Assembly (NCBI GenBank): GCA_965113315.1 | Contig: OZ220375.1 | Reading direction: 5' to 3' (one strand) | Length of the DNA: 64,000 nucleotides | From: Podarcis vaucheri | Lineage: Eukaryota | Shown: in pieces, positions 32,101 to 35,100 of the stretch | Layout of the letters: each line of letters starts with the position of its first letter | How positions within the stretch are numbered: position 1 is the stretch's first letter | Made by a program: the position numbers and the translations under genes | Notes under the pieces: generated by a model | Databases searched by the model: none | What the model was told of the DNA's origin: nothing | The model's input: only the letters and a program-made list of their open reading frames with translations

Positions 32101-35100
32101 NNNNNNNNNNNNNNNNNNNNNNNNNNNNNNNNNNNNNNNNNNNNNNNNNNNNNNNNNNNNNNNNNNNNNNNNNNNNNNNNNNNTGTCTTCCCGTGTAAGA
32201 GTCGGGGTGTCTGTGCGACGTTTCGACGAGGTCTCACTCGTCATCTTCAGGCTGGTGCTTTCGGCTTCTTGTTACTGGAACAGAGCAGAATCTGGTGTTT
32301 GAGTTCCTATAAATACTGTTGAGGGGTGTGGTGTATAGCCTCCAACGTTCTGGGCAGAGAGGAAGTTCCTAGATTAGTGTGCCTCTTCTTCTTTTGTTCC
32401 TTAATTACTTGAGGGATATCTTGAGTGGTTTCATGAGTGATATTCTGAATACCACTGGGTGGGTCATTAAGTGTAGATTAGTTGCTAAAGCTTTTGTGTC
32501 TTGACCTCTTGAGCTTGTGAAGAGTTTTTCTGAGAAGATGGCTGTGCTGCATTTAGTTGTGCTCTGGCTTGGCTTCGTGTATAGGGGCGAGCTGTGGTTT
32601 TGTGCCTTGTGCCAGCCAGATCTGTGTAGGGATTGCAGGGGGGTGCAGCATCCGGAGGTGCCACTATAGTTTGGCTACTGGATGGAGTCTGTAATATGTC
32701 TGTGGAGAGGGTCTGGGTTTGGGTCTGGTGTGGTTGATTGGTGACGGCGTTCTGTGTGCCTCTGGTTCTGGTGTCGGTTTTTGTGGGGAGGGCTAATTTC
32801 CAGATGTCTGGCAGGCGGGACGTGTCGTCACGCTTGTTCATGTTGTGAGGGTGTTTCTCTATCTCACCACACCCCTCAACAGTATCTATCTACACCACAC
32901 CCCTCAACAGTATTTATAGGAACTCAAACACCAGATTCTGCTCTGTTCCAGTAACAAGAAGCCGAAAGCACCAGCCTGAAGATGACGAGTGAGACCTCGT
33001 CGAAACGTCGCACAGACACCCCGACTCTTACACGGGAAGACACCCGAAGACACCAAAACCTGCATTCCTGTACCCGTGAAAATCTACGAAAGCATATATA
33101 TATATATTCAGAGAAAACCACCACCATCTCACTTAACTTAAAAATTATATTTATGGTATGGAAAGGGTTTGGAAGGTTTTTTTTACTGTGTTATGTTCAT
33201 TTCATCTGGCCTCTTATTCTGATTCCTAAAAATATTTATGTACCACCATATCTTTTAAAAAAACACACAAGCAGTTTACAGTTTATTTATATTTAATGAA
33301 AACACATTCACATTTAAAATCAGAGTCCATCGACTATTATGTAAATGTATTTTATTAATTGTCTGCATAAGCCTGGCAGCATAGAAAAGTCCTCACCAGG
33401 TGTTTAAAGGTTGCAACTGAAAGCATCTGCCCCAAAATGTATAATCCCTGCAAAACATGTGACTGTAAACCAACATGGTGCCCCCTCCAGATATGGTTGG
33501 ACGACATCTCTCATTATCTGTGACCACTAGCCATGTGGACTGGGGCTGATGAGGATTGGACTAACCCCTGGAAGTCACCATATTTGGGAATAAGTTGTAT
33601 TGAGCTCAGAGGGTAAGACAAATAAACATGTATTGAACTCACAGGGACTTACTTCTGAACAGAAATGTCTACTGGCATCCTATGTCAAGAATATCAAATG
33701 CCCCCAGAAATCTGGAATATTTCTGCACAGGACTCACACATAAAATGTCTGTGCCTAGGAACTGAAGTTGGCTCTGCACAACCAACATCTTAAAGCTATA
33801 ATGCTGGCGTTCACAGATCAGAAGGTAAACAGTCTGCATACCAGTTACTCTGTACTCCCCTCGCATAACCCCACAGAAGAACAGGGATCCACATTTTGGG
33901 CCATATATTCAAGATTGTGGATTGATGCGTGAGCTACCCTGATGTTCTTATGTAAAATGTGGGCAGATCTTTTCCGACCCTTTTCTTGCTTAGTTAGAAC
34001 TTTAAGACTGGATACCACCCAATGTTTCTTCCTTAGAGAAGGCCTACTGAAATCAATGGACAGCCACTGATTTCAAGGTGTCTTCTCCGAATATCGCTTA
34101 ATTTTAACTATGTATAGGGAGCCACATCTGGTGTCGTAATGACAAGGTGAGTTAAGGTGGCATTTTAGGGGAGGGTAAGTGACACCTGTTTATTTAATTA
34201 GGGTGGTATATAAATTCAATAAATAATAATAACTAAAACAGCTCAGGCTAATAAGGATACATCAAGGTCACTGCCTGTAGGAGCCAAACTCGGTAACATA
34301 TTGTAACTCAGGAGAGAAATTCTAGGAGTTGGAAGTCCATAGAAAGGCTACTGTTCAGCATTACCCCAGCTAACGTACCCTACTTATGTATTTTTAGTTA
34401 TTAATTGTTAATAAAAATGGTTACTTAATACAAATCAAATACACAGAAACAAACAGTACATTCTGTATTATTTTTCACTGCTCTCCTAACAAATTGAGTC
34501 AGGTTATCTAATGGGTATCGTAAACATTTGCAATTTCTACTGGATTCAAAATACAACTACCTTATAAAGAATGCAACAGGATCTTTCTTGTATTAGTCAG
34601 GATGTTGATTCCTCTAATTTATCCCTATCTAATTTATCACTGGTTATCAAGATTCTTTAGCAAACAACTAATCCCTTCATTAAAACCAGATTCAAATTAT
34701 ACTAAGCACACAAAATGTACTCAAAATATAGTTAAGTATGTGAAAAGAAGACAAAAACTTACCGCTTTTCCCCATTATATTCAAACTTTATCCGGATGTC
34801 ATTCTGCCAAAGAAGAGATTGTTAGTTCACCTGCTATATGTTTGGGCATTTCCTTCCTTCCACAAAACAATAAAATATATTAGTGAGTTAACTACAGAGC
34901 AGAAGTTGTGGATTTGTTTGGCTTTGCTGTAACTACTCTGTGCAGTTAATTTTAATTTCTTCCCTTTCATGAACCCTGTTTGGTAAGCTATAATGTAATT
35001 TCCAACACAGACCTTAAGACTATATGGCAAAACTGAGGTTAAGTCTCGGGGCACTTTGGAATTTTGAAGGGAAAAAAGGCATGTCGCTCCAGATTGTGGG

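Follow-up and report, generated by a model that had tools for sequence, protein, structure and literature searches.

The window, a stretch of 64,000 nucleotides from Podarcis vaucheri (contig OZ220375.1 of assembly GCA_965113315.1), carries MAP3K2/3-type kinase exons on the minus strand from at least ~38 kb down to ~17 kb. Searched against the PDB, the kinase exons returned only MAP3K2 (one match at E up to 1e-15). We assigned the host gene to MAP3K3 rather than MAP3K2 because the structure matches of a PB1 exon settle the choice: the exon at 30537-30439 (-) matched MAP3K3 at E 3e-14 versus E 1.5e-7 for MAP3K2, which supports the gene name proposed in a first-pass annotation made from the letters alone. 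Directly upstream on the same strand lies a DCAF7-like gene (~51000-64000, start ~63990), in agreement with the MAP3K3 assignment. In human, TACO1 sits between DCAF7 and MAP3K3; a 5-residue motif of TACO1 was absent from the six frames of the window, one motif being a weak test.

The insertion studied here lies in an intron of this gene, ~1.6 kb from each flanking exon. Its parts and immediate surroundings are as follows.

30538-34763, minus strand: host intron of MAP3K3 between two PB1-coding exons (~34804-34764 and 30537-30439).
32042-32183, no strand: assembly gap of 142 N, covering the left (3') end of the minus-strand copy and adjoining the left arm.
32184-32865, minus strand: 5'-truncated Penelope/Poseidon copy with the GIY-YIG endonuclease end, a low-complexity C-terminal extension, and the pLTR with its hammerhead; sense to MAP3K3.
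32184-32335, minus strand: left arm of the inverted repeat, sense in MAP3K3 pre-mRNA and abutting the gap.
32215-32252 (core 32250-32217), minus strand: minimal type-I hammerhead, sense in pre-mRNA, with a 2-bp stem I and a predicted cut after 32217.
32488-32865, minus strand: remnant of an ORF C-terminus, 126 open codons without a start, frameshifted downstream relative to the related proteins P0001 and P0002.
32858-32917, no strand: inversion junction, where a 28-nt unit is imperfectly repeated in tandem (2.2 copies, matching at 93%).
32891-33042, plus strand: right arm of the inverted repeat, a short 5'-truncated pLTR copy that is antisense in pre-mRNA and transcribed first.
32911-32918 (mirror 32315-32308), plus strand: TATA-like octamer in the pLTR, a putative promoter motif.
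32974-33011 (core 32976-33009), plus strand: minimal hammerhead containing the putative ORF start ATG (32982).
33043-33095, plus strand: 3' end of the right copy, with a short family end at ~33065 and then a ~30-nt tail to 33093-33095.
33094-33107, no strand: (AT)7 microsatellite at the right junction, an AT-rich target.

Other repeats occur in the window. Downstream of MAP3K3, an open 914-codon frame at 3-2744 (+) has an RT domain (PF00078, E 4e-38) and by its sequence resembles ORF2 of a young LINE, of which it would be the 3' part. A SINE-like repeat occupies 35687-36384 as two tandem ~370-nt copies with segments 71-96% alike, and a partial tRNA match (29.7 bits) at 23964-24020 (+) within a MAP3K3 intron is probably a tRNA-derived repeat or pseudogene. 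Beside the insertion, the flanks 32016-32038 and 33100-33113 show imperfect mutual complementarity over ~12 nt, which may be chance in AT-rich DNA. Premature polyadenylation by the element was considered and dropped because the element has no AATAAA or ATTAAA on its minus or plus strand.

The insertion had been called a Penelope-like element, and homology bears this out: the minus-strand ORF remnant shares 92% identity with an RT/GIY-YIG protein of Podarcis muralis (P0001). P0001 was the best match of the remnant among longer proteins (5 matches among 186 candidates), and its tblastn alignment to the window reached 91.5% over 118 aa at 32865-32512. The 126-aa remnant itself had no Pfam match. 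P0001 shows RVT_1 at E 4e-16 and GIY-YIG at E 1e-3, the latter below the Pfam cut-off, which another relative (P0004) passes; a single ORF with an RT and, at its C-terminus, a GIY-YIG domain is seen through the relative P0001. A DKG motif lies at residue 76 of P0001, upstream of the RT core and outside the truncated window copy; the motif is named in PMC8557442. Neptune and Nematis are PLE groups with a Zn-finger-like linker between RT and EN. The corresponding CX2-5CxxC motif was absent from P0001, and from all 81 proteins showing both RT and EN motifs among the 124 fetched. P0001 is 46.7% identical to Anolis P0055 over 563 aa and 81.8% identical to a viper protein over 422 aa. Judged on pairwise identity and motifs rather than on a tree, this evidence places the element in Penelope/Poseidon rather than Neptune. 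The family has close relatives at 73% in an agamid lizard and at 82% in a viper; identity is 43-50% for the element of Anolis and for many from insects (P0001, P0004, P0005 and P0008).

Two head-to-head arms frame the insertion, each bearing all core features of a minimal hammerhead, in agreement with the earlier description of an inverted pLTR. The 152-nt inverted repeat (32184-32335 and 32891-33042) was reported as perfect and indeed has 0 mismatches; its 555-nt spacer is uninterrupted minus-strand element body. A descriptor search of both strands of the 64-kb window found exactly two hammerhead sites, 32976-33009 (+) and 32250-32217 (-), one in each arm as annotated. A stricter descriptor gave one match per strand, versus 0 when 150 windows of 64 kb were simulated with the dinucleotide composition of the real one. 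We used a descriptor of our own because Rfam offered no hammerhead match even at E 10: its covariance models returned 0 matches up to that threshold within 32184-33200, and the sole gathering-level match in the whole window was a tRNA-like stretch. Curated Rfam hammerhead families include conserved amniote intronic ones.

The details noted for the motif all match, namely a 6-bp stem II with a 6-nt loop, one unpaired U before it, a loopless palindromic stem III and a 2-bp stem I, and the predicted cut sites at 33009 (+) and 32217 (-) were placed correctly. The features of minimal PLE hammerheads are present: the CUGANGA / GAAA / UH core, an extra nucleotide before stem II, G10.1-C11.1 and palindromic 15.2-16.2. 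The helix lengths of the Schistosoma consensus (helix I 4-5 bp, helix II 7-8 bp) were not found here, the two helices having 2 bp and 6 bp. Within 32217-32250, no alternative letter reached a share of at least 10% in four sequencing runs, which is uninformative on stem II covariation or selection. The two motifs are one element end seen twice, not independent events. Self-BLAST of the window revealed no second element copy apart from one 28-nt match at E 0.049, and no same-strand tandem hammerhead unit, of which a retrozyme has at least two in succession, was found in the readable window sequence.

The ribozyme also overlaps coding sequence. The ATG at 32982, the putative ORF start, lies inside the hammerhead core of the pLTR. 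In the peptide that begins there, codons 33-38 align with E-x-L-R-x-H of Anolis P0055, although weakly (score 20); a longer E-x-L-R-x-H motif was found near the N-terminus in 6 of the 124 proteins. A stop codon at 32990-32992, in another frame than this ATG, is also inside the plus-strand hammerhead, and the ORFs of relatives P0002 and P0003 end there. In these relatives the ORF reads through the pLTR from end to end, and its stop is the TGA of hammerhead loop II, 8 nt past the ATG that opens the next ORF in another frame, such that both ORF ends overlap the ribozyme (32975-32992 and mirror). Unlike P0002 and P0003, the window copy is frameshifted ahead of the loop-II TGA.

To compare the window copy with its family, contigs of four of 24 public sequencing runs (X1, X2, X4 and X5) were aligned to 30900-32930, which contains little of the right arm and stops short of the right flank. 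No empty-site joint could appear because this region omits the right flank. Contigs aligned in all four runs (6391, 1810, 499 and 3908), and summed depth was ~1e5-1e6 on the element versus 13-200 on covered flank bins, which is a contrast of three to four orders of magnitude in depth and not a copy number. The family is high-copy. Copies in X1, X2 and X5 run on past 32865 with other letters, and the window copy is therefore 5'-truncated at this position. Only two differences between the window and part of the family were listed in X1 and X2; near-identity to the family majority, taken alone, suggests that the insertion is young. A family variant at 32214 does not lengthen stem I. Among the rows listed, joints or loose ends of other copies recur at 32283-32292, 32619 and 32686-32688, which are perhaps preferred truncation or inversion points or mark a shorter non-autonomous unit.

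The extent first given for the element, 32184 to 33094, stood at its left arm start and was refined at its right end to 33093-33095, which is 112-114 nt into the ORF, at codon 38. The loose ends of family contigs go past 32184 by up to 23-24 letters and no further, which corresponds to 33065 on the right copy. From these sequences we interpret ~33065 as the place where a shorter form of the family stops; on the right copy, a tail of ~30 nt would follow it. A tail of 30-40 bp would occupy one end only; the right end has ~30 nt past ~33065, and the left end is within the N gap. In Anolis PAc, the RT start was mapped in vitro to 111-118 nt into an ORF that also begins at stem II, on AT-rich targets (PMC11167929). 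The 3' end of the right copy appears homologous in position to this Anolis Poseidon start, the peptide alignment behind the comparison having a weak score (20).

A 5' truncation with an adjacent inverted, head-to-head copy is present. The two duplication units at the inversion junction switch strand at slightly different points, and we infer two template jumps from these unequal switch points. Like inversions were found at other copies in 2 of the 15 joints listed (21 in all), 32572→32903 in X1 and 32777→32901 in X5, each on one contig with short sides of 26 and 29 letters, respectively.

The 142-N gap adjoining the left arm leaves room for several readings. Past 32184, other copies of the family read as the reverse complement of 33043-33065, and the final three letters of the left flank are complementary to the last three of both family 3' ends, a weak sign. 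Because of this three-letter complementarity, the gap would need 20 nt to close with the short end and 50 nt with the tailed one. The leftover ~90-120 N may be an over-estimate, an AT repeat or more element. Contigs over the whole unique left flank in X4 and X5 each stop 31 letters past 32041, and a contig in X2, whose flank pieces fit the window best (one other letter in four pieces), stops at 32038. For these stops we considered the element end, a longer (AT)n or a heterozygous fork.

We then modelled the RNA as equilibrium nearest-neighbour secondary structure, a treatment that ignores proteins, tertiary contacts and unwinding driven by editing. The suggestion that the sense motif is sequestered in a long duplex agrees with the predictions: mean arm-arm pairing over the hammerhead was 0.9997, and the predicted duplex had -319.5 kcal/mol versus -22.7 and -40.1 for the free arms. 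In nascent prefixes, arm-arm pairing was 0.0 with 11 nt of the sense arm made and 0.96 once 21 nt were made, and the duplex is predicted to form ~65 nt before the hammerhead core emerges. Stem II had a probability of 0.0000 in all four nascent prefixes with the antisense arm versus 0.95-0.99 in all three transcripts without it. Stem I reached at most 0.027 even in the free transcript.

Given that the antisense arm is transcribed first and that stem II falls from ~0.97 to 0.0000 in its presence, the idea that the hammerhead could realistically cut MAP3K3 pre-mRNA is not supported, and the models make such cleavage unlikely. Published minimal hammerheads point the same way. That of Schistosoma is described as inactive as a monomer and weak as a dimer or trimer (PMC4209133). 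The Anolis PAc hammerhead is reported to have cut only with the element's protein and to be dispensable for insertion in vitro, and in the same study its cut site is the end of no RNA-seq read (PMC11167929). Introns cut by slow hammerheads are reported still to splice, citing Dye 2006 and Fong 2009 (PMC2995048). The arrangement had also been described as a built-in off-switch; the inversion and the apparent switch are best explained as a by-product of how such elements insert. A-to-I editing of the duplex in the MAP3K3 intron by ADAR is likely by analogy; on the pre-mRNA strand the two arms contain 51 and 25 adenosines. The main target of human ADAR is given as intramolecular inverted repeats in introns (PMC526178), over 40,000 hyper-edited sites are reported for lizard Penelope at the family level (PMC5625713), and in X. 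tropicalis Penelope ranks with the repeats that are edited most (PMC10636886).

Taken together, we consider it highly probable that the locus holds a young non-autonomous insertion product of the Penelope/Poseidon clade in a MAP3K3 intron, with an unfolded ribozyme in intronic dsRNA and little or no effect on the gene. Its anatomy, homology, orientation and folding energetics are those described above, from which we infer the insertion route, the absence of cleavage in vivo and the editing. The element's endonuclease would have cut an AT-rich target, and reverse transcription would have started ~112-114 nt into the ORF and run only part-way. A second cDNA off the same template would then have been joined head-to-head after two template jumps, leaving the 28-nt stutter. 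Such joining would leave both 3' ends facing outward, each with a pLTR hammerhead. In MAP3K3 pre-mRNA the antisense arm would be made first and the sense arm would zip onto it, so that the ribozyme would not fold. The likely outcome is a double-stranded stretch of intronic RNA that A-to-I editing can act on, while MAP3K3 itself would be affected little or not at all.

Two alternatives turn on the gap. It is very unlikely that the assembly produced the inverted arm artificially beside the gap, by collapsing or misjoining a repeat. In favour of this, the two arms do not differ and the left one abuts the gap, and among the records listed (32 of 12,816) no contig bridges the gap or the window's own inversion junction. 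Since both arms have the allele that most of the family shows in X1 and X2, their identity cannot separate co-origin from collapse. However, the left arm is collinear with the minus-strand body, and listed family contigs in X2, X4 and X5 span 32335/32336. The imperfect duplication with its two switch points would hardly be an assembler's invention, the inversions at other copies (2 of the 15 joints listed, 21 in all) are similar, and the complementarity of the left flank's last three letters to both family 3' ends argues weakly in the same direction. The least probable reading that we weighed is a tandem partner hidden in the gap, forming a double hammerhead that cuts MAP3K3 pre-mRNA with the antisense arm as its switch. 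The core is intact, stem III is palindromic as in dimer-type motifs (PMC4209133), and the gap exceeds the 20 or 50 nt needed to close it; a minimal second unit of 92 nt would fit, but only with the short end (20 nt + 92 nt). Against this, a canonical tandem neighbour would be ~3 kb distant (PMC6765202), and the 2-bp stem I barely forms in the free transcript and is not extended by the 32214 variant. In a modelled tandem, stem III between the copies had a probability of ~1e-5, tertiary contacts being outside the model. One antisense arm could, by the same models, bury one of two tandem sense copies and leave a monomer, and a single hidden partner would therefore not rescue cleavage. The weak cleavage of published dimers, the protein requirement and lack of read ends in Anolis, and the splicing reported despite slow intronic cuts, all cited above, also weigh against it.

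Two further alternatives concern expression and selection. The head-to-head pLTRs might act as outward promoters, one in MAP3K3 sense toward the downstream PB1 exon and one antisense, with short transcripts leaving the hammerhead free. The TATA-like octamer at 32911 and its mirror fit this proposal, as do the ends of 6 family contigs (in 3 rows listed) at 32283-32286, which lie below the mirror octamer by 29-32 nt, and a stem II probability of 0.97 in a modelled transcript starting at 32286. Downstream exons can be driven by pLTR sequences in D. virilis (PMC2377424), and putative bidirectional TATA motifs are given for the pLTRs of A. vaga (PMC3846280). Yet the promoter of D. virilis is said to be an internal one that lacks a TATA box (PMC2377424), the apparent clustering of contig ends is drawn from the rows listed (279 others), and a free monomer should still not cut. 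We regard outward promoters as highly improbable. With similarly little confidence, we speculate that the family hammerhead cuts nascent host RNA in vivo with the element's protein or a partner, that palindromy silences the element itself such that sense copies survive in introns, and that A-to-I editing could re-expose the ribozyme. If so, lizard introns would have fewer solo sense copies than expected in comparison with palindromic ones, and the young MAP3K3 copy would be a natural test case. In the open-access literature we found no test of intron orientation bias for the Penelope ribozyme, nor of editing-dependent ribozyme release.

The preferred reading, an insertion product with a buried ribozyme, makes this locus one more copy of an abundant lizard retroelement, which matters little as it stands. 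As an insertion it adds a copy to a kind that is known; the architecture, the minimal hammerhead and the heavy A-to-I editing of lizard Penelope are already published. Its modest value is as a clean example, in which the 3' end agrees with the in vitro RT start of a 47%-identical Anolis element and the doubled junction would record template jumping. Were cleavage or editing-dependent release to be shown, the locus would bear on the in vivo role of PLE hammerheads and on their cost to the host.

Among the closest known systems is the insertion unit of EN+ PLEs (PMC8557442, PMC3846280). An inverted 5'-truncated copy beside the pLTR with a one-sided 30-40-bp tail is the published PLE architecture (PMC8557442), and head-to-head is given as the commonest PLE arrangement (PMC3846280). 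The window shares with this unit the 5' truncation, the inverted head-to-head copy, a probable ~30-nt tail at its right end, the microsatellite or AT-rich target and the trouble with short-read assembly. In contrast, the window copy is only ~0.9 kb, without a full ORF or a visible partial tandem, and its left end and any target-site duplication lie within the gap. With the Poseidon_Ac element (PMC11167929), the window shares an ORF start within the hammerhead, an AT-rich target and the position of the 3' end (112-114 nt, versus RT starts at 111-118 nt). We took Anolis P0055 to be Poseidon_Ac because its N-terminus fits, by eye, the RNA printed in Fig. S1 of that paper. The two are different families: the distance from cut site to ATG is 28 nt here versus 26 in Anolis PAc, the N-terminal peptide differs, and the window family has a long C-terminal extension, all compared at the level of protein and position rather than DNA.

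Metazoan PLE minimal hammerheads (PMC4209133) share the core, the extra nucleotide between 9 and 10.1, G10.1-C11.1, palindromic 15.2-16.2 and the lack of a loop III. The 6-bp helix II and 2-bp helix I of the window correspond to the D. virilis variant, as opposed to 7-8 and 4-5 bp in Schistosoma (PMC4209133). The same source describes pairs of minimal hammerheads on opposite strands 100-700 bp apart, whereas the window cores are ~730 bp apart. ADAR-edited intronic inverted repeats, both Alu pairs (PMC526178) and Penelope (PMC5625713, PMC10636886), share a long, near-perfect intramolecular duplex in pre-mRNA; here the two arms would come from one insertion event, and editing is predicted. Finally, animal non-LTR retrozymes (bioRxiv 10.64898/2026.07.22.740005) share a type-I hammerhead from a PLE pLTR, whereas the window copy keeps ORF sequence and has no visible same-strand tandem unit.
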